Source: a virus. From it: 64,000 nt of DNA. Within the stretch, counting starts at the first letter, position 1; each line of letters starts with the position of its first letter. Where the stretch lies: the IMG/VR virus record IMGVR_UViG_3300030103_004816. One strand, 5' to 3'. This document shows positions 1,166 through 55,584 of this stretch, piece after piece. A program made the translations under genes and the position numbers. The notes under the pieces are model-generated. The model was not told the origin of the DNA. It searched no databases and saw only the letters and a list, made by a program, of their open reading frames with translations.

Positions 1166-2182
1166 TTATCTCCTATAAGCTGATAAAGCAAGTTTTGCTT
1201 CTAAATCTTTTTTACTGTTGTTATCAATAATAAGTTTTAAGTCAGCTGCTTTCATCCCACTCATAATCATATCATTAACATCTTTCTCAGCTATAAAAGA
1301 AGGCCACACACAGACTCTATATCCTAGATCAATAGAGCTTTCTAACTTTTTTGTAATTGTCTGTGAGCGCGGTTCGTTATCATATACTATTATTGTGTTA
1401 TCTTTTTTGAGCTCTGGTACTTGACTTAGAGCTTGGATTATATCTGATCCGCATACTGCAATAGAGTTCGGGATAAACATTGAATCAAAAGGACCTTCGA
1501 ATACGTAAACTGGTTTACTGTAATCTACTCTGTCTAAACCATAAATTTTAGGCTTACTTTCATCCAACAGTATAGTTATATAGCGGATAGAATCCTTAGA
1601 AATCGACCTTCCTTGAAATCCATAAAGGTTTTTTTTCTTATCGATAAACGGTATGATCACTCGAGGATCTTTCTTACCTTCTTTAAGCTTTTCAGGTATA
1701 AGTTCATTAACAAAATTAACGAAATCTGAAGTATAAAATAATGAAGCATGGTAGGGATTAGGTATCATTCTACCACTAATAAACATCTTAGCTGAATGAC
1801 TATGCAATAGACTAGATATCTTAGATAATTTTTTTAGAGGCCATAAGCCAGTAGTAATCGGTAAAACCTTGTCCTCAGGCTCAGACACAGTCTGTCCCTT
1901 TGTCTCCCTTTCAGAGAGAACTTCAAGCATGTACTCCTTATAAAGTAATGGGGCATGCTTTTTCATGAAGTTAGCGACGTTCGTTCCATAACCACAATTA
2001 TGGCATTTATAGAACCATTTACCTTCTCTTAAATAAAAATATCCTCTTGCTTTAAACTTATTCTTGCTACTATCTCCGCACTCAATACATCGAACATTAA
2101 TAAGCTTATCAGACTTTCTCTTAAACACAGAGAACTGATTAGACATAAGATTAATATATTTAGATTCAAGCCACGCAGACAT
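1166..2182 (-). CDS. 61: DNA primase gp61
   Basis: Zn finger CIECGDS...CHNC, IIPF...GFQGR, TOPRIM EGPFDS and KDVNDM; probable start MSAWLE. Confidence 0.95.
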   Translation of the reverse strand: MSAWLESKYINLMSNQFSVFKRKSDKLINVRCIECGDSSKNKFKARGYFYLREGKWFYKCHNCGYGTNVANFMKKHAPLLYKEYMLEVLSERETKGQTVSEPEDKVLPITTGLWPLKKLSKISSLLHSHSAKMFISGRMIPNPYHASLFYTSDFVNFVNELIPEKLKEGKKDPRVIIPFIDKKKNLYGFQGRSISKDSIRYITILLDESKPKIYGLDRVDYSKPVYVFEGPFDSMFIPNSIAVCGSDIIQALSQVPELKKDNTIIVYDNEPRSQTITKKLESSIDLGYRVCVWPSFIAEKDVNDMIMSGMKAADLKLIIDNNSKKDLEAKLALSAYRR

Positions 2183-2188
2183 AGTATT

Positions 2189-2217
2189 ATTATAGTGACT
2201 TAGGTGTTGAGAATCAA
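2189..2217 (-). promoter_or_regulatory. Sigma70-type promoter for primase
   Basis: TTGATT-17 nt-TATAAT, 6 nt before the ATG. Confidence 0.75.
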
Positions 2218-2630
2218 CTGGAATGCATGAATTCACCGGCCATTTGTATTAGGAATGATATGACCGTTACTGCTCCTATGATGAACCATTTGTATTGTTC
2301 TAGCTTAGACATTCTATCTTCAATAGCTTCAAATCTTTTAGCAGATCTTTCTTCTATTCTATCTAATTTATTAAGTAATTCAGTATCTTGTTTGATATTA
2401 CTTCTTCTTAGATCTTCAATGTCTGTATGGCTATGTTTAAGCTCTTCTAGCATTCTGCCCATCCGTTCATCTTGAACCGCAGATTTAGATTTTAACTCAC
2501 TTGTTAACTCAGCAATATCAGAGATAATACTCTCAGTTCTTGCCATTAAAGTTTCTTGAAAGCGGAGTTCAGCTGCTACTGAATTAACTTTAGATTCTAT
2601 TTCCGCTATTTTTTGAGCTTGAGTTGCCAT
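2214..2630 (-). CDS. Coiled-coil protein with C-terminal transmembrane helix (XhlA-like/lysis-associated?)
   Basis: Heptad-rich body ending RMSKLEQYKWFIIGAVTVISFLI; adjacent to spanin-like pair. Confidence 0.5.
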   Translation of the reverse strand: MATQAQKIAEIESKVNSVAAELRFQETLMARTESIISDIAELTSELKSKSAVQDERMGRMLEELKHSHTDIEDLRRSNIKQDTELLNKLDRIEERSAKRFEAIEDRMSKLEQYKWFIIGAVTVISFLIQMAGEFMHSS

Positions 2631-4010: not shown

Positions 4011-4409
4011 TTATCCTAATTCTTGTTGTAAAATCTCTGCTACTTTTATATTTTGTTTAATATTATTAGTAACAATATCTTTTACTGGAAGTCCTATTCT
4101 AGGAACTATATCCGGGCATCTGTTTAAAAATTTAAGAAATGGTAATATTTCACCATGATACCCATCAAGCTTCAAGAACAATAATCTTGTTCCTGCTTCT
4201 TGACCAAACTGGTTATATATAACTATGATGTGATTCATAATTAATCTAAATTTCAATATATCTGTCTCTCTAAATTTATTAAGTAGTCTTTTAATGTACT
4301 TAAATCTTTTTAGATCATCGTAAAACTCTAACGTGTCTGTACAGCCAGGATTATCGTAATGCTTGGCTGCGTATAGACTTGCGTTTGCTGAATGTAAGAT
4401 ATCAACCAT
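4011..4409 (-). CDS. Conserved marine T4-like hypothetical protein
   Basis: YAAKHYDNP..C...EFYDDLKRFKYIKRLL...NHIIVIYN motif; late promoter upstream. Confidence 0.7.
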   Translation of the reverse strand: MVDILHSANASLYAAKHYDNPGCTDTLEFYDDLKRFKYIKRLLNKFRETDILKFRLIMNHIIVIYNQFGQEAGTRLLFLKLDGYHGEILPFLKFLNRCPDIVPRIGLPVKDIVTNNIKQNIKVAEILQQELG

Positions 4410-4444: not shown

Positions 4445-5059
4445 TCAGAAGGCTGATAATTGGATTCTTTTGATTTCTGTATTTGATACTGCAACATAAA
4501 TGTAATTAGAGTCATAGAACATATCGCCTGTGACTGCTTCAAATGTAGAGTTAACGTAAGAATTATTAGCTGGAGTCGCTGCTCCAGTAAAATTCACTTT
4601 AGTCGCTCTGACTGTATTAAATAATGGATTTTGTATAATATCTTCAGATGAATCAATTGTTATAACAGGAACACCGTTAGCATCATTTGCTACAGAACCT
4701 TGAATTGATCCATCGAAAGAAAGTTTTAATGTTGAGCTATTAGCCGTAAACACTGAATTAGATTCAATTGTTCCTAATGTATTAGCGTACGGAGCTGTAT
4801 TTGATTGTGTTGTTACCCTTGAATCAGTTACGTCAATTTTATTGATTACGGGTGCTGATAAGCTGATTGTTAGAGCGTTACCGGATATACTCGCTGAAAC
4901 CGAGTTAGATCCAGTAACCCCTAATGAATTGTAAAAGTTATTAACAGATACTTTTTTAGTTTCTATTGCTGATGAATTGGCTACCTCATCAACTACGACC
5001 AGGAGATCATCCCCTGTAACCGAAGTTGTAGCGTTAAGCTCACTTATCTTAGTAGCCAT
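4445..5059 (-). CDS. Probable virion structural protein
   Basis: KISEL...DDLLVVVD...TKK N-terminal motif; S/T/N-rich; C-terminal GDMFYDSNYIYV. Confidence 0.55.
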   Translation of the reverse strand: MATKISELNATTSVTGDDLLVVVDEVANSSAIETKKVSVNNFYNSLGVTGSNSVSASISGNALTISLSAPVINKIDVTDSRVTTQSNTAPYANTLGTIESNSVFTANSSTLKLSFDGSIQGSVANDANGVPVITIDSSEDIIQNPLFNTVRATKVNFTGAATPANNSYVNSTFEAVTGDMFYDSNYIYVAVSNTEIKRIQLSAF

Positions 5060-5071
5060 TATAAAATCCTA

Positions 5072-5584
5072 TTAACTATCAGCAAATTCTGTGTCGTCAC
5101 CGAGTGATCCATCACCTGATTGTTCACCTATATCACCTGAAATTCCGCCAGCTACAAGTACTTCAAATTGTACTCTTCCAGCTCTTCCACCTGAACCAGG
5201 CATTCTACGTACCCAACCAGTATGACCAGCGCCTTGTTGTACGCCAACCTCGTCAGTATCTACACCAAAGACAGCTTCAGGGTTACCTGAAATATTGCCT
5301 TTATGTACTTCTGATACTGTAAGTGATTTAGGTTTCTCAGATAATGCATATGCATTGGTAGCTCCAACAGCTGCGATAGTTCCACCTGCAGAACCTGCTA
5401 TGACTTGTGCAACTGTATTTGAAGTAATAGATGTTATTAAGAAATTATCATCGTTAGATACGATATAATCTCCTACTCTAGCTTCTGTCTCAAACTTAGT
5501 TGATGACCCAGTCACTAAGCCGTTAGCAGCAATAGTTACTGTTCCTGTTGATGCTTTATCGTCTTTGTTTCCCCAAAGTGCCAT
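5072..5584 (-). CDS. Probable virion structural protein (MALWG family)
   Basis: MALWG start, HTGWV...GRVQFEVLVA motif, G/A/T-rich. Confidence 0.55.
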   Translation of the reverse strand: MALWGNKDDKASTGTVTIAANGLVTGSSTKFETEARVGDYIVSNDDNFLITSITSNTVAQVIAGSAGGTIAAVGATNAYALSEKPKSLTVSEVHKGNISGNPEAVFGVDTDEVGVQQGAGHTGWVRRMPGSGGRAGRVQFEVLVAGGISGDIGEQSGDGSLGDDTEFADS

Positions 5585-5606: not shown

Positions 5607-6089
5607 TTATCTAGACCTACTAATCAAGTGCCTTAATAAATCAAGTTTATCAGAACTCTTAGTTAAATCTTCTCCTAATTCTTTCTTACGTTTTGCAACA
5701 AGCTTTTCTATTTCTTTTTTAGACATGTTGCCGCCTTTAACTTCGATGTAATCCTCTACACCTTCTTTATTCATTCTTTTCATTCTATCTAGACCTTTAA
5801 ATCTTTTTTCTTGTCTAGCGTTTATTTCTTTTTCTGGATAGCCTTTATGTCTAGCATTTTCTCCAGTTTGAATGTCGTCTTTTGCTGCTCTTTTATATCT
5901 CTTCATTAAATCAGGAGATAATTCTTGTAACTCAGTCTCTTCAACTCTTATAGAACTAGCGCCAGATTTTCTTAGTTGTTCTTGCTTCTTAGCAAGTTCA
6001 TCTTCATTTCTAGCATATCTATAAGTTCTTCTTCCATCTGCTGTTACAGCTGCTATTTTTTTAGGTGTGTCAAATGCTTCTTTTATCAT
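5607..6089 (-). CDS. Charged modular protein, putative internal head protein
   Basis: Contains LQELSPDLMKRYKRAA...KRFKGL module. Confidence 0.5.
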   Translation of the reverse strand: MIKEAFDTPKKIAAVTADGRRTYRYARNEDELAKKQEQLRKSGASSIRVEETELQELSPDLMKRYKRAAKDDIQTGENARHKGYPEKEINARQEKRFKGLDRMKRMNKEGVEDYIEVKGGNMSKKEIEKLVAKRKKELGEDLTKSSDKLDLLRHLISRSR

Positions 6090-7630
6090 TGTGGCCCCTC
6101 TTTGTAAGTTCCTCCGATATGACCTGTAGCCTTTTCATAATCACCAGAAGTGAATGCTTTTTCTGCTTTCTTTCTTTCTTTCTTGTTTTCATGTGATCTG
6201 ATTCTATCAGCTAGATCATCCATATACTCGTTTGATTCAGGAATTTTTGTAATTTTTCCTAATTTACCTTTGATAGGTGGTTTTTGTTGTTGAACACCAT
6301 GCTTGTCCATAGTTCTTTGCATTCTAAGCTTACCATCTTTTACAGATGCTTTTCCTTCTCCAGGCATCATTTCTTTTGCTTCTTTAGTTAATTTACTAAT
6401 TGCAGTTTTAATACCTTTACGCCTTTTAAGTAATTGCTTTCTTTCTGGTGTTTTATCAGATGAATTAAATGCATTATCTTGATTGTCACCACCTGAATGG
6501 TAAGCCATATCAGCTACATCTTGACCAGCTTTCTTTACATAGCTACCCATTGTTTTTTTTGAAATTTCTTGTAATGCTGCTGAAATAGATTCAATATGTT
6601 CTTTATTCACAGGCTTAGGACCAGGAATCTTATCTCCTAGTTTCTTTTTCATGTGTTGATATTCTTTATTAGAATCGAAATCTTTTTGAGTAGGCTTAGA
6701 AGTAGCCTTGCCATCTGCTCCTATAAAGCCAGGAACCATTTTAGCTTCTTCTACTTTCTTTATTGGGCTTTCAGATTTTTTTTTTGACATGGCCATTTTT
6801 ATTGCCTTGTCTTTATTATCCATATATTCTTTATCATCTGGCTCATCTACACCATCACCATCCATATCACCTTTGTCTTTTTTCATCTTTTTCTTTTCAT
6901 CGATGACTTCGACTTCTTCTTTCATTTTGCCTTTCTTTTTGCCTTTAGGATGACCGTGATGCATTTCAGATAGAATTTCTAAATCTTCTACCCAGACATC
7001 TTCTATAATAAATGGACCATCTTCGCCTTGGAACATAACATCGTAATGAGTAACGTATCCGTTTCCGTCTTCGTCCTCTTCTAATGTATGCATTGTTGAT
7101 ATACATTGACCTAGGCCGTGCTCTTCATGTCTCACATGCTTAGCACAATCATGCATAGTTGCCTTTGCGGCATTGTCTGTATTAAGATCTTCAGACTCTT
7201 TCATTTCTTTTTTATCTTTCTTTTTATCGCCGAGTGGAAGCTCTAATTGCTTAGGCTTCTTTTCCATTCCTGGAAGTTCCATCTGCTTAGCTTCTTTAAC
7301 AACCTTTTCACCCTCAAGTTTCATTCCTTTAGGTATAGGTTTGCATTTTTTCTCTATAGTACAGAAAAATTCGCCTTCTTTACAGTTGTCTGATTTTCCT
7401 TCTACTAATTCTTCTACAATAACTGATTCAGCATTTAATTTTTTGTAGTTATTAGATAGGAAATTATCTGCGTGCTTTCTATAGCTATTTCCTAAATCGC
7501 TCTTGTTGAACGATTTCATTGGTGTTCCGTTTTTACTATGAACAGTTGCTTTGTCCCCATCAAAAGAAACTCTAGGTTTTGCTTCTAGAATGGTGCTAAC
7601 TGATTTTAAAAGATCGTCTGAAAATTTCAT
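6086..7630 (-). CDS. Lys/Glu-rich modular protein, putative internal head polyprotein
   Basis: Late promoter; many [ILV]xE sites; LQEISKKTMGSYVKKA module; HDCAKHVRH...YDVMF domain; DMDGDGVDE motif. Confidence 0.55.
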   Translation of the reverse strand: MKFSDDLLKSVSTILEAKPRVSFDGDKATVHSKNGTPMKSFNKSDLGNSYRKHADNFLSNNYKKLNAESVIVEELVEGKSDNCKEGEFFCTIEKKCKPIPKGMKLEGEKVVKEAKQMELPGMEKKPKQLELPLGDKKKDKKEMKESEDLNTDNAAKATMHDCAKHVRHEEHGLGQCISTMHTLEEDEDGNGYVTHYDVMFQGEDGPFIIEDVWVEDLEILSEMHHGHPKGKKKGKMKEEVEVIDEKKKMKKDKGDMDGDGVDEPDDKEYMDNKDKAIKMAMSKKKSESPIKKVEEAKMVPGFIGADGKATSKPTQKDFDSNKEYQHMKKKLGDKIPGPKPVNKEHIESISAALQEISKKTMGSYVKKAGQDVADMAYHSGGDNQDNAFNSSDKTPERKQLLKRRKGIKTAISKLTKEAKEMMPGEGKASVKDGKLRMQRTMDKHGVQQQKPPIKGKLGKITKIPESNEYMDDLADRIRSHENKKERKKAEKAFTSGDYEKATGHIGGTYKEGPQ

Positions 7631-7654
7631 TATTTCCCCTAATTTATTATGTAA

Positions 7655-7662
7655 TATTTATA
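7655..7662 (-). promoter_or_regulatory. gp55 late promoter TATAAATA
   Basis: Exact consensus upstream of ATG at 7630. Confidence 0.75.
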
Positions 7663-7666
7663 ATTA

Positions 7667-7981
7667 CTAGCAGTTCCATCTTCTTCGAGCTGCTTTGCCT
7701 CTTTCACCTGTCCAACCTTTGGATCTTGCACAAAAGGATTTTCTTCTATTTGCTGCTTTACTACCTTTTTTTAATTTACTAGGTGGGGTAGTTACGGCTG
7801 TTTTTAAATTACCACCTGTTCTTCTATTATATTTAGCTACGCCCTTAGCAGTCATTCCAGCTCCTTTATCAGTAGCTCTTTTGTCACCAGACTTTTGAGA
7901 CATTCCTGACATATCTTCCTGAAATGGTTCTGTGAGGCTTGATGCCTCACTTAGAACCCAATTACGATAGCTTTTTATCAT
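7667..7981 (-). CDS. Basic protein, DUF6321-like
   Basis: GMTAKGVAKY...LKTAV...RRKSFCARS...ARRRWNC; CTS-like N-terminus MIKSYRNWVLSE. Confidence 0.6.
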   Translation of the reverse strand: MIKSYRNWVLSEASSLTEPFQEDMSGMSQKSGDKRATDKGAGMTAKGVAKYNRRTGGNLKTAVTTPPSKLKKGSKAANRRKSFCARSKGWTGERGKAARRRWNC

Positions 7982-8182
7982 TTACTTTTTCCAAACATCT
8001 AGTCCTTCAGATTTAATTAAGGTAAAGACACCATATGCCAAAGCAAGCCAGGCTACCCAATCAATTAAATCCCCTAGAAGTATCCAAGCGAGTGAAAGAC
8101 CTATGATGACACCGCCATCCCAAGTTGTTCTTTCAGCCCATCTTGCAAGGACCCATTCTTTTGCGATATTTAACATATCCAT
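7982..8182 (-). CDS. Small two-TM membrane protein
   Basis: Two hydrophobic stretches after ERTTWDG; AGGAG SD. Confidence 0.65.
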   Translation of the reverse strand: MDMLNIAKEWVLARWAERTTWDGGVIIGLSLAWILLGDLIDWVAWLALAYGVFTLIKSEGLDVWKK

Positions 8183-8254
8183 ATATTTCTCCTATATGTT
8201 TATTTAGCTCATGATATAATACTATTTTTAATAGTTAGTATTATTTATGCTTAT

Positions 8255-9247
8255 TTATTCTTCATAAATGAAGTTTTTGTTCTTTTTTATGTCTTCTAAT
8301 AATGGTTTAAAATGATTTTTTATTTTATTTTCTACCCAATGTGTAGCATCATTATTATAAAAATATTGTTCTATCCAAGCATCTCTATCATAAAATAGTC
8401 TTTGTTTCTCAAGAGAAAGCTCATCAATATAATAAGACATATTTTTAGATGGATCTTTGCTAAAATCTAATAAAGCTCTTGCGAGCCATTTATGTCCTTC
8501 TTCTGTAAAATGCTTCAAGTCATTGCTAACCCATTCATTTTTATTTCCTAATCCTTTTGCTAATTGTAAAGCAAAACCAGTACAACCCCACATTTCTATA
8601 GTATCTTCAAATGTTGCATAATGAGGATGTCTTTTAACAAAGTTAAAGTTTTTTAGTTTTGGAGATGGCCAGTTAAAGATATATTTCTCATAATCTATTG
8701 ATTTAAAAAGATCATAAACTTCATCATCAATTTTACTTATAAATTTAAACCAGTTATAATTATCTTGAGTTATAATAGTTAAGTCCATGTTAAACTTTTT
8801 AGCTAATGTTATTAAGTTATGAATAATAGCTAGAGTTTTAAACGTTCCTCCAACCCATAAAGGAACATGTACATTAGGATCTGAAGGATTAGCTTTACTA
8901 TAAGTAAATTTAGTTGATAAGCCTCTATATTGTTTTTCAGGATCTATTTCAAAACCATTTGCAAACCTTTCACTATGAGAAAGATATAATATAACTTTAG
9001 TATGATTCTTTATTATCTTATTAAAGTAAATCATAAAGCTAGTAAAAATTGAATCATTACTTCTTGCTATTTCAGAGTTATTAATAAAAGGTAAGGCACA
9101 GTACTCATGATGGTTTCCGTTCTGATTTTGATGACCATCTACAGGGTTTGATTCCGGATTAATCTGAAGAGGCCAAGCATAAGCTTGAGACTCTACATCA
9201 TGTCCTTTAGTATAAGAACATCCATCAAAATAGAATTTAAGACTCAT
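8255..9247 (-). CDS. SGNH/GDSL hydrolase-like protein
   Basis: YFDGCSYTKG block I, SNDSI block, DLKHF catalytic DxxH. Confidence 0.6.
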   Translation of the reverse strand: MSLKFYFDGCSYTKGHDVESQAYAWPLQINPESNPVDGHQNQNGNHHEYCALPFINNSEIARSNDSIFTSFMIYFNKIIKNHTKVILYLSHSERFANGFEIDPEKQYRGLSTKFTYSKANPSDPNVHVPLWVGGTFKTLAIIHNLITLAKKFNMDLTIITQDNYNWFKFISKIDDEVYDLFKSIDYEKYIFNWPSPKLKNFNFVKRHPHYATFEDTIEMWGCTGFALQLAKGLGNKNEWVSNDLKHFTEEGHKWLARALLDFSKDPSKNMSYYIDELSLEKQRLFYDRDAWIEQYFYNNDATHWVENKIKNHFKPLLEDIKKNKNFIYEE

Positions 9248-9971
9248 ATAAAAATCCTGTTTGTAAAATATTTTTAACTACTCCGCCTAAAAATTTACTA
9301 GATTCCTGTTTAACTTGATAAGTATCCATATTGTTTCGTAGATACATTATAATATTTTCTCTACAATAATCTAAATTAGGTTTATTACCAGTCCCTAACC
9401 AGTTTATTATATCTTTATAAAGTTGAAAGTTAGCATCATTTCCTAAATGAGAAAAGTTATTTCTTAAATCTTTATTTTGAGCTCCGTAAATAGTAATCAA
9501 GCTATGAAGAAGCCAGCTATGTTCCTCTCTATCTAGCATGACATTACTGTTAAACCATTTCTCTTCTGGGAGGCTATCAAAGCAATAAGCTGGTTCAACA
9601 GTTATAAATTTAAAATCTAAATTATGTTTATCGCTATAGTCACTTAAACATTTGATATATCTCTCAGTATTTCTTCTAGTTTCAAATAGATAATTATTAT
9701 TATATGAGCCGTCTTTGTTTATTACATGGCTTCCAAATGCTAAATGTCTTGTTCCTTTATCTGTTTCTACTTCTTGTCTGTCACTATAAGTAAACATAAC
9801 TAGATAGCAATCGTGCTTATTTAATTGCATTGCTTGATAAGTATCGTGAAAAATTGAGATATTTGATTTGCCTGAATAGGCATTTATAGTTTTATTTTTT
9901 AGATGATGAGACCAACTAATATGGTCTTCCCAGTCGCAAGCAAAGCTGCAACCGTCTACATAATATTTCAT
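9237..9971 (-). CDS. SGNH/GDSL hydrolase-like protein (paralog)
   Basis: YVDGCSF, GKSNISI, FSHLG. Confidence 0.55.
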   Translation of the reverse strand: MKYYVDGCSFACDWEDHISWSHHLKNKTINAYSGKSNISIFHDTYQAMQLNKHDCYLVMFTYSDRQEVETDKGTRHLAFGSHVINKDGSYNNNYLFETRRNTERYIKCLSDYSDKHNLDFKFITVEPAYCFDSLPEEKWFNSNVMLDREEHSWLLHSLITIYGAQNKDLRNNFSHLGNDANFQLYKDIINWLGTGNKPNLDYCRENIIMYLRNNMDTYQVKQESSKFLGGVVKNILQTGFLYES

Positions 9972-9974
9972 AAT

Positions 9975-12377
9975 TTATTTTTTCTTATTTCTACCCTTTC
10001 TCATATTAAGTAACCAATGAGCCAGCTGTTTTTTTCTAGGAGAAGCTGAGTCACTTGATCTAACTTTTTTAAGAGATGAGGTAGATTGCTTTCCACTTAA
10101 TCCATGTCTTTTAGAGTCGCCTTTGTCTTGGGGATTTTTTCCGTCTTTAAAATTTTCTTTAACGCAGTTAGGTACTATTTTTTTACCTTTCTTTTTCATT
10201 CCTTGCTGCTTCCAACCGTCCCAGCATTTCTCATCGACTCTTTCTTCAGTTTTAACGTTAATAGGTTTACCACCTTTACCTGGTCTATCTGCTACTGGAT
10301 CTTGTCTTCTTTTTCTTCTAGCTGCTTTACCTCTATCTGCTTTAGACATAGAGTGAGCTTTTGATTGAGGAAGGCACTTAGGTTTGCCCTCACCTGGCTC
10401 TCTTGCGCAATCACCTTTAATATTGCCTTTGGTATCCATACGGACCCATTTATCTTTAAACCAATCTCTTAGATCTTCAGACGCTAGACTTTTTTTTTCT
10501 AATATAAGAGTTTGTAATTGATTAATTACTTTATCTTCTGTAGTTGATGTAACGTTAGGAGCAGTTTTTTTATTTTTAACTCCTCCATATTTCTTGACGT
10601 GTTTACCACCAGGTAAAAAGTCAGATTTTATTTTACCTGTATCTTTATTCTGTCTATAATCAGGAAATCTATTATCAGCCTTTGACTTTTTAATCTTAGT
10701 CTCTAATGAATCATCCTTTTTATATAAATCTTGTTGTTGATCTTTTTTGAATGGAGAAGGCTTATATCTTTGTTGACGACCGAATTGTAGGTTCACTCTT
10801 TTTCTTTGTATTCCTCTTTTAGGTTTTTCAGAATCAAACTCAGCTTCACCTAATTTTTTTTGAGCTTGCCTAATACCAAGCCCTCTCTTCATAACCTTTT
10901 TAGTAGCAGAAGCAGCTCTAATACTTTCACCTCTTTTGCTCTCTTTTTCCATCTTATCAATGTTATGAAGTCTTTCTGCTTGCGCTTTACCTACATACGA
11001 CTTAAGAGTGGATTTATCTAGTTCGTTTATAAAATTTTCTTCCATGTTACTAACATGTCTATGAATATCATTTGCAATTGTTTTATGATCATCTTTCGAT
11101 AAATGTGGGTTATGATTTTTAACAGCTTTATGAATTGCTTTTTTATCAGATTTATGATCAGTAGTTGTATAGCTATGACCTGATGGATGCTTTCCAGAGA
11201 AAGTTAGACCTCCTCTGTCACCGCCTTGATGGAGCTCGTGACCATCAGAAGCATGACCTGACTTAGAATAATCTGCACCTGTTCTAGCATATTTAAACTC
11301 TTTTTTTCTTTGATCTTCGTTTATATCTTTCATATGGTTATCATATTGCTTAGAACCTTTACCATATTCTTTTTTGATACGTCTTCTTTCTTCTTCATGA
11401 CCTCGTTTAAAACTACTTGAATTTTTATACCCTTCTTTACCATACTTAGACATTTTATCTTTTTTGAATTCATCGTAAGATCCTTCACCTAAGTCTTTTT
11501 TTATTTGATCTCTGTCCCATTGCTTACCTTTTGGAAGACCTTTATTTTCTTCTTTTCTTCTATTAGCAGCATCTTTGTTATATTTCTTAAGAAAGTCCAT
11601 AGATTTTTTCTTTTGTTCTGGGGTACTATGATCGGCACTAAATTTACCTTTACTCATAAGATATCTATTAGATGCTTTCTTAAACTCATCTGAAGTTTTC
11701 TTTAATTTACTTACAGCGTCACCTAATCTTTTCATTTCAGATTCATTAGCTAATTTTCTATTCTTATCGCCTTGAGCAACCTTAGCTAATTTTCTTTTTC
11801 CTGCTTCACCAGCTGACATACCTTTAGGTCTCATTTGATGTTTTACATTATCACCTGGTACTCTTTCTTCTTTATTAAGACTTTTTGATAAAGACTTTTG
11901 AAATTGACCTATCTTTCTTGCTCCGGCTGAGAATGTTAATTTTTCATTTCTCTTTTGTTTTTCTGCAGCTTTTTTATATTCTGGATCTCTATGATCATCA
12001 TGCTTTGTATAAGCCGAATGAGTGTTTATTCGTCTTTGCTTTGCAACTTTATTAATTAAATCTGTTGAAAGCTCATTTATATTTTCTTCGTTTTGAGCTA
12101 GTTTAGTAGCTGTAGCATACATAACTGCTTCATGATCTCTTCCATATCGTTTCATAAAGTCAGTCTTATTTTTCTTCATACCCTTAACAATATCTTCTCT
12201 GTCTCTTTTTTCAGCCGCTGAAAGTCTTGACTCAGCATTATAATGCTTTGCCATTTGATTCATTTCTTTATTTGATGGAGCTTTATGCTTGTAAAGCTTT
12301 TTCATATCAGCTTCAGCTCCAGGTGGATATTCTGATTTAGTCTTTTTATTAAGTAGACCTTTAAGATTTTTTGGCAT
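9975..12377 (-). CDS. 800-aa Lys-rich modular protein, putative internal head polyprotein
   Basis: Concatenated cassettes: RYGRDHEAVMYATATKLA, INELSTDL, INELDKSTLKSYVGKA, LRDWFKDKWV...KPKCLP, KCWDGWKQQGMKKKGKKIVPNCVKE. Confidence 0.55.
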   Translation of the reverse strand: MPKNLKGLLNKKTKSEYPPGAEADMKKLYKHKAPSNKEMNQMAKHYNAESRLSAAEKRDREDIVKGMKKNKTDFMKRYGRDHEAVMYATATKLAQNEENINELSTDLINKVAKQRRINTHSAYTKHDDHRDPEYKKAAEKQKRNEKLTFSAGARKIGQFQKSLSKSLNKEERVPGDNVKHQMRPKGMSAGEAGKRKLAKVAQGDKNRKLANESEMKRLGDAVSKLKKTSDEFKKASNRYLMSKGKFSADHSTPEQKKKSMDFLKKYNKDAANRRKEENKGLPKGKQWDRDQIKKDLGEGSYDEFKKDKMSKYGKEGYKNSSSFKRGHEEERRRIKKEYGKGSKQYDNHMKDINEDQRKKEFKYARTGADYSKSGHASDGHELHQGGDRGGLTFSGKHPSGHSYTTTDHKSDKKAIHKAVKNHNPHLSKDDHKTIANDIHRHVSNMEENFINELDKSTLKSYVGKAQAERLHNIDKMEKESKRGESIRAASATKKVMKRGLGIRQAQKKLGEAEFDSEKPKRGIQRKRVNLQFGRQQRYKPSPFKKDQQQDLYKKDDSLETKIKKSKADNRFPDYRQNKDTGKIKSDFLPGGKHVKKYGGVKNKKTAPNVTSTTEDKVINQLQTLILEKKSLASEDLRDWFKDKWVRMDTKGNIKGDCAREPGEGKPKCLPQSKAHSMSKADRGKAARRKRRQDPVADRPGKGGKPINVKTEERVDEKCWDGWKQQGMKKKGKKIVPNCVKENFKDGKNPQDKGDSKRHGLSGKQSTSSLKKVRSSDSASPRKKQLAHWLLNMRKGRNKKK

Positions 12378-15099
12378 TTAAGAAATCCTTATAAGATGTT
12401 ACTTTTAGTTTTCCTGATTGACCTAAACCTTTAAGAGGTTGTTGTGGAGGAATCATTCCTCCTTTACCAGGAACACCATCAATAGCTAAGTCTCTGCTTT
12501 GAGTTTGTCCTGGAGTACCTGCCATATATTTTTGACGTAAAGCATCAGTTCCTATAAATCCTCCGCCATACTCTTCATTATGCTCTCTTTCTTTTTGTCT
12601 TTGATCATAATCTTGTAAACCATGTTTTTTACCTTTAGCAATTAGTCTTCTATTAGCTAAGCCTAATCCTTTTGATCTTTTCATTGCAACATTATCTTTT
12701 TGCTTAGCTAAACCAAGTTTATTATCCATTGCACCTTTTGACTTTTGTGAAGAAGCAGACATTCTATAAGAATCTCTATCATATTCAGCATCGTTTCTTT
12801 GCTTTTTAGCTTTGGCAGAATAGCTTGCTATAGTATCTGAAGATATCTCATCTAAATTTTCTTCTTTAACGGACTTCCATCCTCCGCCTGCAGCTTTATA
12901 TTTTTTAGCTGCCCAGCCATTTGCATATGCTGATGGATATACATCAAATTTTGCCTTAGCTTGAGATTTAAACTTAGACCATAGAGCTGGTTTAGTAGGT
13001 TTATTTTTTTCTTCTATATGCTCTATACCTTCTAATGCTACATTTTTCATTTTTACTTTAACATTTTTAGCTGGTTTAAGCATATGATCGATAGTTGAAG
13101 ATTGAGCTATCTCTTGCATTTGTTGTTCTTTTGAACCATAAGTTTCACATGGATCTTTTCCGCATCCACAATTTTTTACTTTGGCTTCGTTTTGAATAAG
13201 CTTATCTAATTCTTTCTTTTGTTTGAGATGAGCTTTAACTGATCCTGTTAAACCTTTAGAGAGTTTTTTAAGACCTTCAGTATCTTTTGCATTTACTTCT
13301 TCCATCTTAGGCTTCTTATCCATTCTCTTTAGTCTTTTTTGTAATTCAACTCTAGCTGTAGCTCTTTTTCTTGATAAGGTGTTCATATTAAGAGGAGATG
13401 CTTTTACTTTATCTTTAAGATCATCCATCATTCCTTCTTTAACAGGCTTATTAGCTTTTTCTTTAGCAGCACGCTTCTTATCAAAGTCTACTTTTACTTC
13501 TAAAGGTACTGGAGCATAAGCTTCAGGAAGCTTAGGTATTTTATTACGTTGTTTGTCTAGTGGATCAGATCTTAACATCTTTCCACCATCTCCATCTTGT
13601 CCAGCGTCTCCCTTTTTAAGTTGACCAGATCTAGTAAAGTGGTACCCTTTAGGAGCTCCTTTAGTTTCATTCATCCTTTTTATTGGCATATGAGGATCTT
13701 TATTATCTTCTGGATTTCTCTTAGCTGCGTTTTCTTTTCCTCTTTTAATAATCTTATCAACTTTTTTATTCATTCTAAGTTTTGTTGCTGCTTTGTTTCT
13801 TGTTGATGAATAAGCAAAAGGATTCATTGACTGAGCTTTCAGTTTAAGGTTATCCATTATACCTTCATCTAATTCAGAAAGAAATGACTCAAATACTTCA
13901 TCCATGCTAGATGATTTATTTTTATTAATAAACTCATTAAGTCTGTTGTATGCAAACGAATCACCATGATCTCTATATTTGTTATAGACTTCTGATAGTA
14001 TGTTTACTGGAATTTCAGCTGATATAGACTTCTTAATAATACTATTAAGTACCTTTTCAGCTATTGGTTTGTTTTCTTTATGATTGTTTTCTGTTAGGTA
14101 AGAGCTAAAAGCCATATCCATAGCTTCTTTTCTTGTTCTAAATGATTTGAATCTAGCAAATTCCTTACGTCTCGTTACAGGCATAATCCTTGTAGCTAGC
14201 TTCTTAACTATATTACCTCTGCTTCTTACCCTTCTATCGATAGATGCTTTCTCTTGAGGTGATAGTTTAGTATATGATTTACCTCTTGCTCCAGCAATAC
14301 GATTTCTCATAACTCTAATAGCCGCCCTTGCAGTTCTTTTCTTAATTCTACCAGTTTGAGCTATTCTACGAGCTACCCTTCGTCTTGCTACTTTTAATCT
14401 TGCCTTATAACGCCTGGCCGCTATAGCCTTTTTTCTTCGGCCCGCCACGGTCAATACGCCCGCTTCATCAAGATGTTCTTCAAATATATTGTCTAAGTCT
14501 TCTTTTAAGTTCATACCTTCTCTTACCATTTTAAGTATTTTATCTGCATACTTATTTAGCTGATTAGGAAGTCCTCGCTTGAAAGCTTGTACGTCGTTCT
14601 TAGCAGCAGCATCTCTCATTTTAGTTGCTGACATTCCAGTTACTCCATCAGAGTCTGGATCTCTAGTTCCTGCTGACACGACTTCTATATTTTCGAAGTT
14701 AAAATCCTTACCGTTATAAGTAGTGCTAATTCGTTTTAAGTCTTTAACTCTATCAGATCCTACTACTATAACAAGGTTTTTATAGTTGCCGCTAAGTTCT
14801 TTTAACATATCAAATATGTTTTTAGCATTAGATTTTTGCACTATACGACCAAAAGCCATGTTTATTAACTTAGCTTTATCGTTATAACTTAATGGATTCT
14901 TCTTAGAGTCTACGGAATGAGACAGGTAGATTAGCGGTTTTGCTTTTTTCTGTTGAGATACACGTAGCATTTTATTAACTAATGCTAAATGACCAACAGT
15001 GGGAGGGTTCATGCGTCCAAAAGTTACTACAGCTGTTTGCGACGCTGCTTCTGACAACTCACTAGGGTTGAGAACTATATCTAAATTGTCGTTAGTCAT
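12361..15099 (-). CDS. Cytidylyltransferase-like (HIGH/KMSKS) domain fused to about 700 aa of basic cassettes
   Basis: TFGRMNPPTVGH, VVGSDR, GMSATKMR in first ~200 aa; later KFDVYPSAYANGWAAKKYKAAGGGW and EISSDTIASY modules. Confidence 0.8.
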   Translation of the reverse strand: MTNDNLDIVLNPSELSEAASQTAVVTFGRMNPPTVGHLALVNKMLRVSQQKKAKPLIYLSHSVDSKKNPLSYNDKAKLINMAFGRIVQKSNAKNIFDMLKELSGNYKNLVIVVGSDRVKDLKRISTTYNGKDFNFENIEVVSAGTRDPDSDGVTGMSATKMRDAAAKNDVQAFKRGLPNQLNKYADKILKMVREGMNLKEDLDNIFEEHLDEAGVLTVAGRRKKAIAARRYKARLKVARRRVARRIAQTGRIKKRTARAAIRVMRNRIAGARGKSYTKLSPQEKASIDRRVRSRGNIVKKLATRIMPVTRRKEFARFKSFRTRKEAMDMAFSSYLTENNHKENKPIAEKVLNSIIKKSISAEIPVNILSEVYNKYRDHGDSFAYNRLNEFINKNKSSSMDEVFESFLSELDEGIMDNLKLKAQSMNPFAYSSTRNKAATKLRMNKKVDKIIKRGKENAAKRNPEDNKDPHMPIKRMNETKGAPKGYHFTRSGQLKKGDAGQDGDGGKMLRSDPLDKQRNKIPKLPEAYAPVPLEVKVDFDKKRAAKEKANKPVKEGMMDDLKDKVKASPLNMNTLSRKRATARVELQKRLKRMDKKPKMEEVNAKDTEGLKKLSKGLTGSVKAHLKQKKELDKLIQNEAKVKNCGCGKDPCETYGSKEQQMQEIAQSSTIDHMLKPAKNVKVKMKNVALEGIEHIEEKNKPTKPALWSKFKSQAKAKFDVYPSAYANGWAAKKYKAAGGGWKSVKEENLDEISSDTIASYSAKAKKQRNDAEYDRDSYRMSASSQKSKGAMDNKLGLAKQKDNVAMKRSKGLGLANRRLIAKGKKHGLQDYDQRQKEREHNEEYGGGFIGTDALRQKYMAGTPGQTQSRDLAIDGVPGKGGMIPPQQPLKGLGQSGKLKVTSYKDFLNAKKS

Positions 15100-15155: not shown

Positions 15156-16349
15156 TTATCGCCTGTTGTCATTGTTCCATCCCTTAACTATTTCAGGGTT
15201 AAAGTTTGAATATGAGAATTCAAGACGGTCTACTAATTTAACGGTATTACCTTTCCTATCTATAGCTACGTAACCTTCTTCTCCAGTCACTTGAAAACCT
15301 TTATTAGTCTTTAGGAAAGTACTAAGCTTACTAGCTTTATTTAACTTATTAATTATTATTTTCTTAGCCTTAGCCAAATGCATTTGCATTTCAAATATAG
15401 AAGCTATTCTATATTCAGGTAATTTAGAAAACATTATAACGTTAGCTAAAGCTATCTTCTTTCTATCTTGACCAGATTCAGTCTTAAGAGCATCAACTTC
15501 TTTACTAACTCTTTGAACTAGATAGCTTTTTAGACTCTTAGTATACTTCATAGGTGATATTATATCCTTACCTTCACGAATGTGCAAGTTATGATGAACT
15601 TTTATATAAGAGAGTAAATGTTTATCTTCTGATATCTTCTTAATTACTCTAGTATCTATTCTCTTTAATGCTTTATTAGCATAGTCTAACTCTCTTTTAA
15701 GTTCCTTGTCTTCATCTTTAGTCATAGTAGCACTTCCAGATAAGTCTTGATATGTAGCATCTATCATCCAAACTTTATCTAAAGGCTGAACCCAGCTCAT
15801 TTTAAACGGCTTCATATCATGAGATACAGTAGTATGAAAAACTATACCTATCTCAGATTGCAGTATTTGATTAGCTAGTTCGGAATCTTTAGGTACTGCG
15901 TACACAATAGTATTAGGGTGAAATATTAAGTAAGTTTTACTATCTATAACTTGAGTCTTTATATCATCTTTAGTATATAAAAAATCACCTTGAATTACTG
16001 TATTAGGTCCTATACTTAGATCTTTTAAATAGTATAGAGCTCTTTTTAACTTATCTGCTAGATCAGGATTCAGATCGGCGGCATCGATCTCCTTCGGAGA
16101 ATAATACATAACCGGTGTCTTATTAAAGTAACTTTTAGTAGATACAAATAATTTACTATCTTCTCTTCCTACTACAATAGCAGGAGCTCCATCCCACTTA
16201 ACAGTAGCGTTAACTGCATCTTCAGAGCTACTAGTTAATGAGTCTCTTAATGATTCAAGAAAGTTAAGAGCTTGATCAGCTCCTTGAATGCCATTATTGA
16301 GAACTAAGTCCTCTAAATGCTCCATATGTGTATTGCTAGTTAAGGTCAT
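15156..16349 (-). CDS. DUF6267-like protein, ligase-type nucleotidyltransferase motifs
   Basis: NTHMEHLED, TVKWDGAPA (KxDG), QGDF, EGYV, VKLVDRLEFS. Confidence 0.65.
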   Translation of the reverse strand: MTLTSNTHMEHLEDLVLNNGIQGADQALNFLESLRDSLTSSSEDAVNATVKWDGAPAIVVGREDSKLFVSTKSYFNKTPVMYYSPKEIDAADLNPDLADKLKRALYYLKDLSIGPNTVIQGDFLYTKDDIKTQVIDSKTYLIFHPNTIVYAVPKDSELANQILQSEIGIVFHTTVSHDMKPFKMSWVQPLDKVWMIDATYQDLSGSATMTKDEDKELKRELDYANKALKRIDTRVIKKISEDKHLLSYIKVHHNLHIREGKDIISPMKYTKSLKSYLVQRVSKEVDALKTESGQDRKKIALANVIMFSKLPEYRIASIFEMQMHLAKAKKIIINKLNKASKLSTFLKTNKGFQVTGEEGYVAIDRKGNTVKLVDRLEFSYSNFNPEIVKGWNNDNRR

Positions 16350-51730: not shown

Positions 51731-53074
51731 TTACATTATGTTGTTAACAAGTACTCGTCTGTAATATACATTTGAGTCTTTTGTTAATGCACCATTACCG
51801 TATGCTGTACCTTCAGCAAATGGGTTAGCAACAACACCATACCTAGTTTTGAAACCAATCTTAGGTTGGAAAGTGTTCTCACCAACTGCTCTAACCATTT
51901 GTAGAGGAACATATGGGCAATAGAATATACCAGCATCAAATGCTGATGATCCTTTATATCCTAATGTGTAATAGTTACCAGTAGTATATGGATCAATGTA
52001 TACTCTATATCTTCCGTTCAATACACCAGCAAAAGTATTACCAGTATCATCTACTTGTAAGTTATTAGAGTTAAGTGCAGGAGTGTAATCCAATACGCCA
52101 GCCATTTGAAGAGCTGAAGCTACGTCAGAAGATGTAATAAGGACATTACCCTTTCCTCTTCTTGTATCTTTCGCGATTTGGTTTGCATCCCTTTCAATTT
52201 GGAACATTAAGCCTTTGAACTTCTCAACAGACCATCTACCATTTGAATCAGTATCTAAATCAAATGTTCCTGATGTTGTTGTGTCGACTGTAGCACCTTG
52301 CTTAGCAACAATGTTAATTGTTCTAATAATCTCTCTGTTGATTTCTGCTAAGATTTCAGTAGAAAGAATATTTGCTAATTCAGTTTCTGCGTCTAGTCCA
52401 TGGATAGCTCTTAAATCTTGAGCAAGTTCCATTGAGTATTCAGCTTTTAAAGCTCTACTTTGAGCTGTTACACTTACCTTCTCGATTGAGAATGCCATCT
52501 CTGGGAAAGCAATATTACTTGCATTACCTAAAGCTTCAGCTTGGTTAGTTGACATACCATCGCCATAGTTATAAGCACCTGTCTCAGCGTTATTAGCTGC
52601 TACTGGAACTGTACCGACGTGTTTGTCACCTTGTGTATTAGCATCTGCAGTTCTTGTTGCAAAAGCTGTATCTGCTTCGTTATAAAATGCTTCAGTAGCT
52701 GAGTTAGCCATTGAGCTGTACTTAGATCTCATTGCGAAGATAAGACCTGTAGGACCACTCATAGGTTGAACACCACACATGTCATAAGCGACAAGGTTAG
52801 GCATTGCTCTACGTACTAAGCTTATTAAAACAGGATCATAGTTCTGTACACCGTCACCGAAACCAGCAGTACCAGTTGCGTTGACAGGAGTATGTGTTCC
52901 TGCTTCAGCGAGAAGAGATTGTTGAGAGTATGAGCTTCCTTCTCTTAAAGCTATCTCTGTATTTTCTAATAGTTGAGCTGTAACTGCACGCTTGTGAGTA
53001 TCACCAATAGATGGTAGATCTTCGTGCTCAAGAATTGGCTGCCACTTCTCAACTAGATTTGTATTAAGGTCCAT
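51731..53074 (-). CDS. 23: Major capsid protein gp23
   Basis: KWQPILEH, GVQPMSGPTGLIFAMR, YCPYVPL, FQPKIGFKTRYG. Confidence 0.98.
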   Translation of the reverse strand: MDLNTNLVEKWQPILEHEDLPSIGDTHKRAVTAQLLENTEIALREGSSYSQQSLLAEAGTHTPVNATGTAGFGDGVQNYDPVLISLVRRAMPNLVAYDMCGVQPMSGPTGLIFAMRSKYSSMANSATEAFYNEADTAFATRTADANTQGDKHVGTVPVAANNAETGAYNYGDGMSTNQAEALGNASNIAFPEMAFSIEKVSVTAQSRALKAEYSMELAQDLRAIHGLDAETELANILSTEILAEINREIIRTINIVAKQGATVDTTTSGTFDLDTDSNGRWSVEKFKGLMFQIERDANQIAKDTRRGKGNVLITSSDVASALQMAGVLDYTPALNSNNLQVDDTGNTFAGVLNGRYRVYIDPYTTGNYYTLGYKGSSAFDAGIFYCPYVPLQMVRAVGENTFQPKIGFKTRYGVVANPFAEGTAYGNGALTKDSNVYYRRVLVNNIM

Positions 53075-54187: not shown

Positions 54188-54856
54188 TTATACTAGCGAG
54201 TCAAGAAACTTCTTAAAGAACTCGACTTTTCGCTCCTGTAGCTTAGCTACGGACTTGTCACCAGTATTTTTAATGTGTTCAATAATTTCTGCTGTTCTAG
54301 ATCTCCATTGACCTTCGGCAGCATCATAAACCCATTCTGTACCTTCCATTACTCCTTTAACAAATGCATCGGGAGCGGAAGGATCAGCAACTATATCAGC
54401 TGCTGTTGCTAGCATAAAATCACCTTGAACTTCCATAACACCGTTATTTGGTTTAAGTGAACCCATACCTCTTGAAGAGACACCTAATTGGGCTCCTTCA
54501 TCCATTAGATTCTTGACGATGTTACCCATTGGAGTATCCATAATTTTGGCCTTACCAACAAAGTTATCACCATCTTCCTTCAAACTTGTAATCATATGTG
54601 AAACTCTATCTAAGTTAATTGTAGGACCAGAAGGGTGACCTAATTCACCATATGCTCTCTTAGCATCGATATTCTCTTTAATATATCGTCCTACTTCTTT
54701 AGACATTGTCTCTTTAGGATATACTCTACCATTTCTATTTTTTAAGTTAGATTGTAGGAATACTCCTTCTATAAAATAATTCTTTTTATCGCCGTCTTCT
54801 GTCGCTTCTTTTAAATAATTGACTTCGCTAAATTCTACTTCTGTAATTAACTTCAT
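54188..54856 (-). CDS. 21: Prohead protease gp21
   Basis: MKLITE, NRNGRVYP, GELGHP, GVSSRGMGS, DIVADPSAPDA. Confidence 0.97.
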   Translation of the reverse strand: MKLITEVEFSEVNYLKEATEDGDKKNYFIEGVFLQSNLKNRNGRVYPKETMSKEVGRYIKENIDAKRAYGELGHPSGPTINLDRVSHMITSLKEDGDNFVGKAKIMDTPMGNIVKNLMDEGAQLGVSSRGMGSLKPNNGVMEVQGDFMLATAADIVADPSAPDAFVKGVMEGTEWVYDAAEGQWRSRTAEIIEHIKNTGDKSVAKLQERKVEFFKKFLDSLV

Positions 54857-54857
54857 A

Positions 54858-55109
54858 TTAGTCTCCAAACCCTACAGGTGTAAATTTACCAGCTGTAGCA
54901 AAGATTTTATCTCCAGGGCTTTTAGCAAAGTAATGTGAGCCTGCTTCTACAGTAGTATTACCTATTGCTGTATTAGCACTATCTACTAATGTAACAGTTG
55001 CTGCAGCAGTATGATAGAACTTTAAAAGTCTTGCACCATCATAAGCGCTTGCACCGCCTAGGTTAGTTCCAGCTGCTGATTCGTTACCCTTAAGAATTAT
55101 TATCTTCAT
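54858..55109 (-). CDS. Small head-region protein
   Basis: Between prohead core genes and gp21. Confidence 0.6.
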   Translation of the reverse strand: MKIIILKGNESAAGTNLGGASAYDGARLLKFYHTAAATVTLVDSANTAIGNTTVEAGSHYFAKSPGDKIFATAGKFTPVGFGD

Positions 55110-55584
55110 GTTCGCCCTCTATGCTTTTGTAACAGAAATCAACTAGCTCTATAAAAGAGTCTTTTGATTGTTCTAATAGTTCTAAAAATTTGTCTTGATT
55201 GTCTTCTGATAATGAGTCAAATACTTCTAATACAACTTCAGCAGTTTCAGGATCAACGCTTAGCTCAGTTCCGTCTTCTAAAAGAATATTAGATGCTTCT
55301 TCTGATTCATAAATCCCCTCAACGGATTCTAATACAGTAGAAACTTCTGAAGCTATATCTTCATACATTGCTTCTTCTTCTTCTTTAGATAAATGAGTTA
55401 CTTTACTTGTATCTTTTTTTGCACCTCTAGCATTCAATACATTGTCAGTATCTTTTGCTGGGTATTCTTTATCTTGAATATTATCAGTATGCTTTTTCTT
55501 CCACTGCTTTTCGCCTTCAGCTTTATCTCTACCGTGATGCTTTAATTCGCCTACTGCTTCTAAAATTTCGCTAAGTCGTTTCAT
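55090..55584 (-). CDS. Prohead core protein (gp68-like)
   Basis: Start MKRLSEILE; acidic; synteny. Confidence 0.6.
   Translation of the reverse strand: MKRLSEILEAVGELKHHGRDKAEGEKQWKKKHTDNIQDKEYPAKDTDNVLNARGAKKDTSKVTHLSKEEEEAMYEDIASEVSTVLESVEGIYESEEASNILLEDGTELSVDPETAEVVLEVFDSLSEDNQDKFLELLEQSKDSFIELVDFCYKSIEGEHEDNNS

Follow-up and report, generated by a model that had tools for sequence, protein, structure and literature searches.

IMG/VR virus record IMGVR_UViG_3300030103_004816 (64,000 nucleotides, hereafter the window, all of which was analysed) belongs to a T4-like myophage, marine and uncultured, whose G+C content is 33% and whose genes are nearly all on the minus strand. The window encodes the major capsid protein, a gp22-type scaffold, a gp21-type protease, the portal, the tail sheath and the large terminase, together with DNA polymerase, helicases, primase and ribonucleotide reductase. 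A preliminary description, made by a model from the letters alone, had singled out four minus-strand open reading frames (ORFs) of 160, 514, 800 and 912 amino acids (aa), here o160, o514, o800 and o912, as polyproteins that gp21 would cut into many small capsid-cargo peptides. The four ORFs are real, with lysine contents of 14.5-18.8% each and net charges of +11 (o160), +8 (o514), +94 (o800) and +87 (o912), and they belong to a fast-evolving island of probable cargo genes, reaching from the DUF6267 gene to the primase gene, that is kept by marine and freshwater T4-like phages.

The locus and its gene order

On the minus strand, the DUF6267 gene is followed by o912, o800, two unassigned ORFs, a 66-aa membrane-like ORF, o104 (DUF6321), o514 and o160, and further on by o170, o204, o132, the spanins, primase and nrdA (Table 1). 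Cyanophages P-HM2, Sf-CH8, P-TIM68 and S-SM1 keep this order, which in cyanophages runs DUF6267/GC71, cytidylyltransferase/GC190, variable basic proteins, a 'MALWG' protein, GC198, primase and nrdA, and the stretch of Caulobacter phage Cr30 that we examined keeps part of it only (cytidylyltransferase, a module-bearing basic protein and a MALWG-like gene). A megablast comparison of the locus with isolated phages gave no match, and the nearest record to the window (G001) is a 16.7-kb fragment without the locus.

Enzyme domains are limited to one in o912, with none in o800, o514 or o160, and neither Pfam, PHROGs nor NCBIfam assigns a functional family to the latter three. The o912 domain (PF01467, 28.2 bits against a cut-off of 21; phrog_3041, E 6.9e-60) carries the motif GRMNPPTVGH, and its HIGH-motif nucleotidyltransferase character and position after the DUF6267 (GC71) gene place o912 with the T4-GC190/phrog_3041 proteins. 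NCBIfam gave only weak NMNAT-type hits for this domain (E 8.6e-5 and 4e-4, far below cut-off), and a PDB sequence search found no relative.

Table 1. Features of the island and of the head genes of the window. HMM, hidden Markov model; nt, nucleotides; an arrow marks a known or candidate cleavage position.
Feature	Position	Strand	Residues	Remarks
Primase gene	1166-2236			the four ORFs sit between this gene and the DUF6267 gene
o160	5607..6089	-		160 aa, small basic protein with one module copy
Module copy in o160	5784-5942	-	50-102	external HMM E 1.7e-5
o514	6086..7630	-		514 aa, beads-on-a-string cassette protein
Module copy in o514	6380..6577	-	352-417	LQE↓ISKKTMGSYVKKA...KRRKGI, external HMM E 3.8e-18
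o514 DxDxDG (EF-hand-like) cassette	6770..6883	-	250-287	common to virion-detected S-SM1 GC1454
o514 His/Cys beta cassette	6947..7162	-	157-228	common to cyanophage P-HM2 GC534 and ~160 cyanophage records
Late-promoter-type box TATAAATA	7655..7662	-		24 nt before the o514 start
o104	7667..7981	-		DUF6321 protein, net +18; PF19846 E 2.2e-12; N-terminus MIKSYRNWVLSE↓A
o800	9975..12377	-		800 aa, basic cassette protein (net +94) without enzyme domain
o800 W..W/Cys block (CWDGW...PNCV)	10008..10490	-	630-790	most widely shared cassette block
Module copy in o800	10848..11039	-	447-510	INE↓LDKSTLKSY..., external HMM E 8e-11
o912	12361..15099	-		912 aa (net +87), HIGH-family nucleotidyltransferase with a long, basic tail of cassettes fused to it
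Module copy in o912	12640..12864	-	746-820	LDE↓ISSDTIASY...KRSKGL, external HMM E 1e-8
o912 'PSAYANGW...GGGW' cassette	12865..13008	-	698-745	phrog_27331; also in cyanophage Sf-CH8
o912 cassette block	13189..13881	-	407-637	missing from the L003 orthologue (alignment)
o912 conserved Arg/Lys-rich domain	14089..14463	-	213-337	125 aa, net +35, then LTE337↓N
o912 cluster of four [LIV]xE sites	14464..14520	-	194-212	ends LDE212↓A at the enzyme/basic-domain junction
o912 putative N-terminal propeptide	15049..15099	-	1-17	ends ...NPSELSE↓A
DUF6267 ligase-like gene	15156..16349	-		island anchor; PF19782 E 4e-87
Major capsid protein	51731..53074	-		LLAE57↓A, the aligned counterpart of LTE65↓A, where T4 gp23 is matured
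gp21-type (S77) prohead protease	54188..54868	-		phrog_207 E 3e-80
Gene at prohead-core (gp68) position	55090..55584	-		start MKRLSEILE↓A, resembles the o514 N-terminus

Shared modules and exchangeable cassettes

A profile built only from outside proteins (285 module copies) was searched against all six frames of the window and found exactly one significant module copy in each of the four ORFs and none elsewhere. The common module recognized in the preliminary description therefore stands for all four ORFs, although a fifth copy placed near aa 100 of o800 scored below zero and was rejected, and the second motif, KR.KG[IL], follows the first after ~37-54 residues as read from the sequences, not after 20-35 aa as had been stated. 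All-against-all BLASTP among the four ORFs returned nothing significant, so that their relationship is visible only through the family profile.

Searching with the o514 module led to relatives with two to six tandem copies (P0016, P0017, P0018), and a HMMER scan with P0016 across 1.84 billion representatives recovered 2,704 proteins at E ≤ 1e-3 (929 at E ≤ 1e-10). A pattern scan of 185,579 prokaryote species, one genome each, gave five module hits, all on contigs of metagenome-assembled genomes (L089-L093, binned as Bacteroides, Actinomycetes, Thermoleophilia, Cellvibrionaceae and Luteolibacter). As these few contigs are probably mis-binned phage contigs or prophages, the module is essentially viral, and by these searches it forms a virus-only family of ~2,700 sequence clusters, without literature and defined here. 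The family, LDE-ISKKTLGSY, overlaps Pfam DUF7443, which 9 of 66 module-family members match at E ≤ 1e-3 and whose gathering score of 27 bits is barely exceeded by P0016 with its six copies (29.2 bits); in the four ORFs no match to DUF7443 reached the gathering score. No literature was found on DUF7443, DUF6321 or DUF6267, and an ESM Atlas search with the o514 module returned scores below 0.9 and no lead. The module is a predicted helical hairpin of ~65 aa. In the AlphaFold model of P0016 (predicted local distance difference test score, pLDDT, 65; predicted template modelling score 0.24) each unit folds as a helix-loop-helix hairpin, and the units do not pack against one another in any fixed way.

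Cassettes other than the module are likewise shared. The preliminary description had them shuffled between genes, and alignments of orthologues and domain fusions elsewhere bear this out, between orthologues as well. P-HM2 GC534 combines the His/Cys and DxDxDG cassettes of o514 with the CWDGW...PNCV cassette of o800, and one module-family member gives EF-hand Pfam hits. Outside the window, o800-type cassettes are fused to cytidylyltransferase, DUF6321 (in many relatives), zeta-toxin/AAA_33-type kinase, pterin dehydratase and deaminase domains. Some o514 orthologues (55-87% identical) have the Cys cassette in place, others have it relocated or lack it; in this set the DxDxDG cassette varies in position, and additional module copies are inserted between similar 'KES.E' linkers. 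The orthologue of o912 in contig L003 is >90% identical over the first 406 residues and then lacks a 230-aa block, with another cassette replacing PSAYANGW further on. The N-terminus of o800 is itself a decayed module copy with Gly in place of Glu; its orthologues begin with an intact module, MPKSLKE↓I(D/S)KKTLHSY, which in L003 reads MPKSLKE↓IDKKTLHSY.

Ratios of nonsynonymous to synonymous substitution rates against the L003 orthologue are 0.09-0.18 for the cassettes, in the same range as the enzyme domain, and 0.16 for the Arg/Lys-rich domain of o912, indicating that the cassettes are under purifying selection. AlphaFold models of P0016 and o514, whose confidence is too low to support a search by fold, contain helical hairpins and small islands only (o514: mean pLDDT 50, folded islands at aa 160-225, 343-421 and 468-505), and the Lys/Glu-rich linkers that join the small conserved cassettes are probably disordered. 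Taken together, these comparisons mark the stretch from DUF6267 to primase as a hot spot of cassette exchange.

Cytidylyltransferase fusions like o912 recur in the 80 related contigs, where they span 589-1,622 aa and carry net charges of +4 to +86 (at least +23 in all but one). In some relatives (P0258-P0261), the cytidylyltransferase-type domain (compare o912 aa 1-212, 14464-15099) is fused to zeta-toxin/AAA_33-type kinase domains.

Candidate cleavage sites, N-termini and virion evidence

The protease of the window is 38% identical to T4 gp21 and conserves the catalytic His and Ser motifs GEL(G/N)HP and GVSSRG; with the scaffold (phrog_237, E 4e-72), both the gp21-type (S77) protease and the gp22-type scaffold core that go with T4-type internal proteins are present. 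The alignment of the capsid site with the T4 gp23 maturation site (Table 1) makes L-x-E specificity of this protease likely. An S77 protease is also encoded by all three module-carrying isolates (Cr30, P-TIM68 and siphovirus S-SKS1) and by S-SM1 with its syntenic locus.

Two classes of candidate site are strongly conserved. The start of the module was scored in 328 copies, for which the downstream S..T..Y..(K/R)A core served as the sole anchor: Glu lies two residues upstream of the core in all 328 copies, Asp never, and Leu, Ile or Val lies four residues upstream in 327. The second class lies at the junction of the enzyme and basic domains, which in o912 reads ...EHLDE212↓AGVL...(net +35)...SSYLTE337↓N. 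Across an alignment of 28 cytidylyltransferase fusions (31-94% identical), every member has at this junction an invariant [LVM]-x-E, usually LDE↓A, whose Glu lies within an acidic linker of variable length, and a second group of sites follows the ~125-aa domain. This conservation is a stronger argument than site counts.

Counts of [LIV]xE, compared with composition shuffles, are highest in the scaffold (22 observed, 11 expected, z 4.0), followed by o912 (18 observed, 8.6 expected, z 3.6); o514 also shows an excess (13 observed, 7.0 expected, z 2.6). Among the 85 window genes, the scaffold ranks 1st, o912 2nd, o104 5th and o514 7th, over a window-wide background that is already 1.28x expectation. 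T4 gp22 has 20 such sites where 10 are expected, and the T4 core proteins gp22, gp68, gp21 and Inh are enriched ~2-fold; T4 IPI, IPII and IPIII have one [LIV]xE site only, the one that removes the targeting sequence. By eye, ~9 of the 13 o514 sites fall in low-pLDDT segments that cover 57% of the protein, which we do not treat as evidence.

In T4, residues 4 and 7 of the capsid targeting sequence target and residues 8 and 10 direct processing, which Asp at position 10 blocks (PMC9026906), leaving targeting intact. T4 IPII and IPIII start with MKTYQEFIAE↓A and IPI with MKTFKEF...ITE19↓A. The T4 positional pattern is found on S-SM1 GC190 (MKKFSAFLNE↓A), P-TIM68 (MKSFTSFFTE↓ARV) and Sf-CH8 (MKSLFQFLSE↓A), and some o912 orthologues have a strict T4-type start, MKSF..(Y/V)(V/I).E. 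The positional pattern also occurs on S-SM1 GC1455 (MLSFKELQE↓K) and on several cytidylyltransferase fusions (MKSFRQYVTE↓, MKSFIEVIKE↓A). Among 147 module-family proteins 24 carry it, compared with 0.15% after shuffling. Our literature search turned up no account of marine phages with T4-type targeting signals.

An unbiased scan of all ORFs in the 80 related contigs, with the start codons of the longest ORFs, places the pattern around DUF6267. It occurs on 42% of DUF6267 genes themselves and on 28% of the genes directly before them, compared with 2 of 353 ORFs four or more genes upstream. Downstream, at positions 2 to 8, its share is 0-15%, with six of these seven positions at 7-15%. Near DUF6267 the pattern is carried by 41 of 425 ORFs (9.6%) and far from it by 0.6% (Fisher p = 1.7e-9). 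Most relatives' DUF6267 proteins have a 10-residue extension, M(K/L)(K/S)F..(F/Y)(L/I).E, right before KNTHMEHLED; it is absent in the clade of the window and in cyanophages P-HM2 and S-SM1. These extensions suggest that the DUF6267 enzyme, ligase-like in sequence, is packaged in many uncultured T4-like phages. A separate observation on DUF6267 (15156-16349; relatives L012-L088) is a ligase-like K-x-D-G motif, VKWDGAP.

Looser forms of the signal are found in the island itself. The N-terminus of o514, MKFSDDLLKSVSTILE16↓A, resembles the 19-residue IPI signal, and its first 20 residues are nearly invariant among orthologues of 55% overall identity. The o912 form, ...NPSELSE17↓A, belongs to the conserved motif [IL]x[IL]NPxLxE↓A, which in many o912 orthologues immediately precedes the catalytic domain and follows extensions of variable length, and o104 has ...VLSE12↓A.

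Proteins from the corresponding locus of cyanophages have been detected in virions. Mass spectrometry of purified S-SM1 virions detected 41 proteins (Sullivan et al. 2010; PMC3037559), among them the 'cytidylyltransferase' GC190 with 25 peptide counts, more than the portal, the singletons GC1453 (12), GC1454 (10) and GC1455 (7), and likewise GC425 ('S-layer domain') and GC426. In the S-SM1 annotation, GC190 is followed immediately by GC1454 and GC1455, with GC1453 just ahead of GC71. The DxDxDG cassette opens GC1454, whose N-terminal region matches 29 proteins from our searches, mostly module-family members, with E down to 7e-16. S-SM1 GC71 has no targeting-like N-terminus and is not flagged as structural. 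The S-CREM2 virion proteome includes a cytidylyltransferase (ORF154), for which its authors suggest encapsidation (PMC10665884).

The late-promoter-type box TATAAATA before o514 also precedes the scaffold gene, and an ATAAATA box precedes the starts of the capsid, sheath, o170 and o66/o104 genes. On the minus strand, 14 of 21 boxes are intergenic. Two ATAAATA boxes precede the 66-aa Trp-rich ORF (7982-8182), which lies directly upstream of o104, appears hydrophobic and membrane-like by eye and matches no family.

Other genes of the region can be described briefly. Two adjacent ORFs of 330 and 244 aa between o800 and o104 (8255-9971, at 29% the lowest-GC stretch of the region) match no family; each begins with a (Y/F)(F/V)DGCS(Y/F) motif, from which they may be paralogous. 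At 4445-5584, o170 (MALWGNK...) is like S-SM1 GC425 and Cr30 gp063 in N-terminal motif and locus position, with no significant BLAST match, and the adjoining o132 (4011-4409) is the conserved GC198/phrog_407 gene. Between portal and protease (55090-55966), an acidic 131-aa ORF and a 164-aa ORF starting MKRLSEILE↓A stand where T4 has gp67 and gp68; calling the longest ORF gives 199 aa, which probably begins too early.

Proposed capsid cargo and competing explanations

We hold with moderate confidence that the four ORFs encode capsid cargo proteins of the T4 internal-protein type, built of exchangeable cassettes, and that the head protease trims these proteins, at the very least at the N-terminus and where the enzyme adjoins the basic domain. 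In this model, the proteins would be made late in infection and drawn into the prohead scaffolding core by a short N-terminal propeptide, like the T4 capsid targeting sequence. The gp21-type protease would cut after Glu in [LIV]-x-E, at a minimum removing the propeptide and splitting the o912 nucleotidyltransferase from the 125-aa Arg-rich domain, and the strongly basic products would remain with the packed DNA and enter the host alongside it. Packaging in the prohead, as the preliminary description had proposed, is supported indirectly, by the virion proteomics of S-SM1 and S-CREM2 orthologues and by the targeting-like N-termini of the island; processing by a gp21-type protease is plausible, and we infer cleavage and ejection of the four proteins.

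A number of observations weigh against capsid cargo. No ORF of the four shows the strict T4 positional pattern: the N-terminus of o800 lacks any candidate site, the loose form in o160 (IKE4↓A) would give a 'propeptide' of only 4 residues, and [LIVM]xE[AGS] occurs within the first 30 residues of 12% of the other window genes. Part of the N-terminal signal in the module family is continuous with a conserved module (SEVAQPK...), a single orthologous subfamily therefore accounts for some of the 24 hits, and the module shows no preference for the extreme N-terminus (12 observed, 14.5 expected). The [ILV]xE motifs that were described as separating the cassettes are not significantly enriched in o800 (8 observed, 5.7 expected) or o160 (4 observed, 3.1 expected), unlike in o912 and o514, the primase has a similarly high z-score, and the invariant L-x-E could be a structural helix start instead of a cleavage site. 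Virion proteomics covers only orthologues and syntenic genes that lack the module, in other phages, and the S-SM1 data show these proteins to be in virions but do not place them in the head. Replication genes surround the island. Finally, late boxes had been described upstream of these genes, and the one before o514 stands, but no exact box precedes o912 or o800, and a late-type box, AATAAATA, lies at 26743-26749, 23 nt before the DNA polymerase start. Late boxes are therefore suggestive, not diagnostic; either the box is not specific to structural genes in this phage or the polymerase gene has an additional late promoter.

Several of these points would also fit proteins that are not packaged at all and act inside the cell as nucleic-acid-binding proteins, for example as organizers of the nucleoid or replication factory or as RNA chaperones, with L-x-E as a structural element. 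The genes lie between helicase/polymerase-side genes and primase, their extreme basic charge suits DNA or RNA binding, and the missing strict signals and the lack of an exact box before o912 and o800 point the same way. We nevertheless consider this explanation unlikely, as syntenic S-SM1 proteins are in virions, targeting-type N-termini cluster in the island and the o514 late box is like that of the scaffold gene; T4 internal-protein genes, too, lie scattered among early genes in hypervariable loci, a likeness to the island.

True polyproteins, as originally proposed, would differ from trimmed capsid cargo in extent: the head protease would cut most [LIV]xE sites, releasing many basic peptides of 30-130 aa that are injected as separate effectors for DNA condensation, anti-defence or host takeover. 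An invariant cleavable motif opens every module, the site density of o912 and o514 is like that of the scaffold and of the degraded T4 gp22 and unlike that of the persisting T4 internal proteins, clusters of sites bracket the Arg-rich domain, and nine of nine predicted o800 fragments are net positive. Yet the site counts do not significantly exceed expectation in o800 and o160, several sites would be shielded by their position within folded cassettes or the enzyme domain, AlphaFold continues the module helices across the putative scissile bond, and family searches found no cassette similar to a known effector or anti-defence protein, which together leave extensive processing improbable in our judgement.

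It is very improbable that the proteins sit in the virion outside the head (in tail, neck or surface) and are not head-protease substrates: the neighbours o170 and o204 resemble S-SM1 GC425 ('S-layer domain') and a tail-fibre PHROG, and S-SM1 mass spectrometry gives no location within the particle, but a highly basic, largely disordered predicted architecture is atypical of external structural proteins and the N-terminal likeness to T4 head-targeting signals points to the head.

The capsid-cargo reading can be extended, tentatively and with considerable doubt, to an unrecognized system of capsid 'core proteins' of marine T4-like phages, in which a hypervariable island would supply capsid-tagged enzymes and arrays of basic cassettes. 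The in-head protease would excise the protamine-like ~125-aa Arg-rich domain and the hairpin modules, which would neutralize and escort the DNA, and the freed nucleotidyltransferase and DUF6267 would be injected and act in the first seconds of infection.

The proposed cargo is closest to the T4 internal proteins IPI, IPII and IPIII and to Alt, which share with it a gp21/gp22-type head and basic character and have a short N-terminal propeptide ending in hydrophobic-x-Glu; Alt is moreover a packaged enzyme, as is proposed here for the cytidylyltransferase. The T4 loci are hypervariable, with only the signal conserved (PMC3012670). The T4 internal proteins are, however, small and single-domain with one site, whereas the four proteins are mosaics of 160-912 aa with many candidate sites and a repeated module, whose own N-termini fit the T4 signal only loosely. 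T4 gp22, gp67 and gp68, which are degraded to internal peptides, share the ~2-fold [LIV]xE enrichment of o912, but these T4 proteins are acidic and their genes belong to the head gene block, whereas the four ORFs lie elsewhere and their products are strongly basic. The cyanomyophage core virion protein T4-GC190 is a homologue of the o912 N-terminal domain (41% identity, E 7e-40) with the same synteny after the DUF6267/GC71 gene. T4-GC190 proteins are ~380-400 aa long with an SH3-like end, or in P-HM2 ~185 aa with the enzyme domain only; o912, unlike these, adds the Arg-rich domain and ~570 aa of further cassettes.

More distant systems offer partial parallels. Phages phiKZ, 201phi2-1 and SPN3US use a different cleavage motif, S/A/G-x-E. 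A gp21-related protease of these phages cuts many head proteins after Glu within short motifs, and propeptides have redundant sites (PMC9026906). We found no sequence relationship to the ejection and inner-body proteins of these phages, which belong to different families. For the polyvalent proteins of phages and conjugative elements, which are likewise multi-module, both transfer along with the DNA and processing have been proposed (Iyer et al. 2017, PMC5512222). They hold several effector enzyme domains and often their own peptidase, whereas the four ORFs have at most one enzyme domain and tiny non-enzymatic cassettes, and none of the hallmark polyvalent-protein domains (MuF, ART, methylase, peptidase and others) was found in them. 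Adenovirus pVII and pX are basic precursors that are cut in the capsid by the virion protease into genome-bound, DNA-condensing peptides; virus lineage and protease are unrelated, and the resemblance would be one of analogy only.

T4-like phages are among the most abundant marine viruses. The previously unexplained 'cytidylyltransferase' of cyanophage virions is now linked to a T4-type capsid-targeting signal. If the extended proposal holds, the cassettes would be exchangeable cargo units, shuffled by recombination at similar linkers, and if the predictions are true, the signals could serve, as they do in T4, for loading the capsids of marine phages with foreign proteins.

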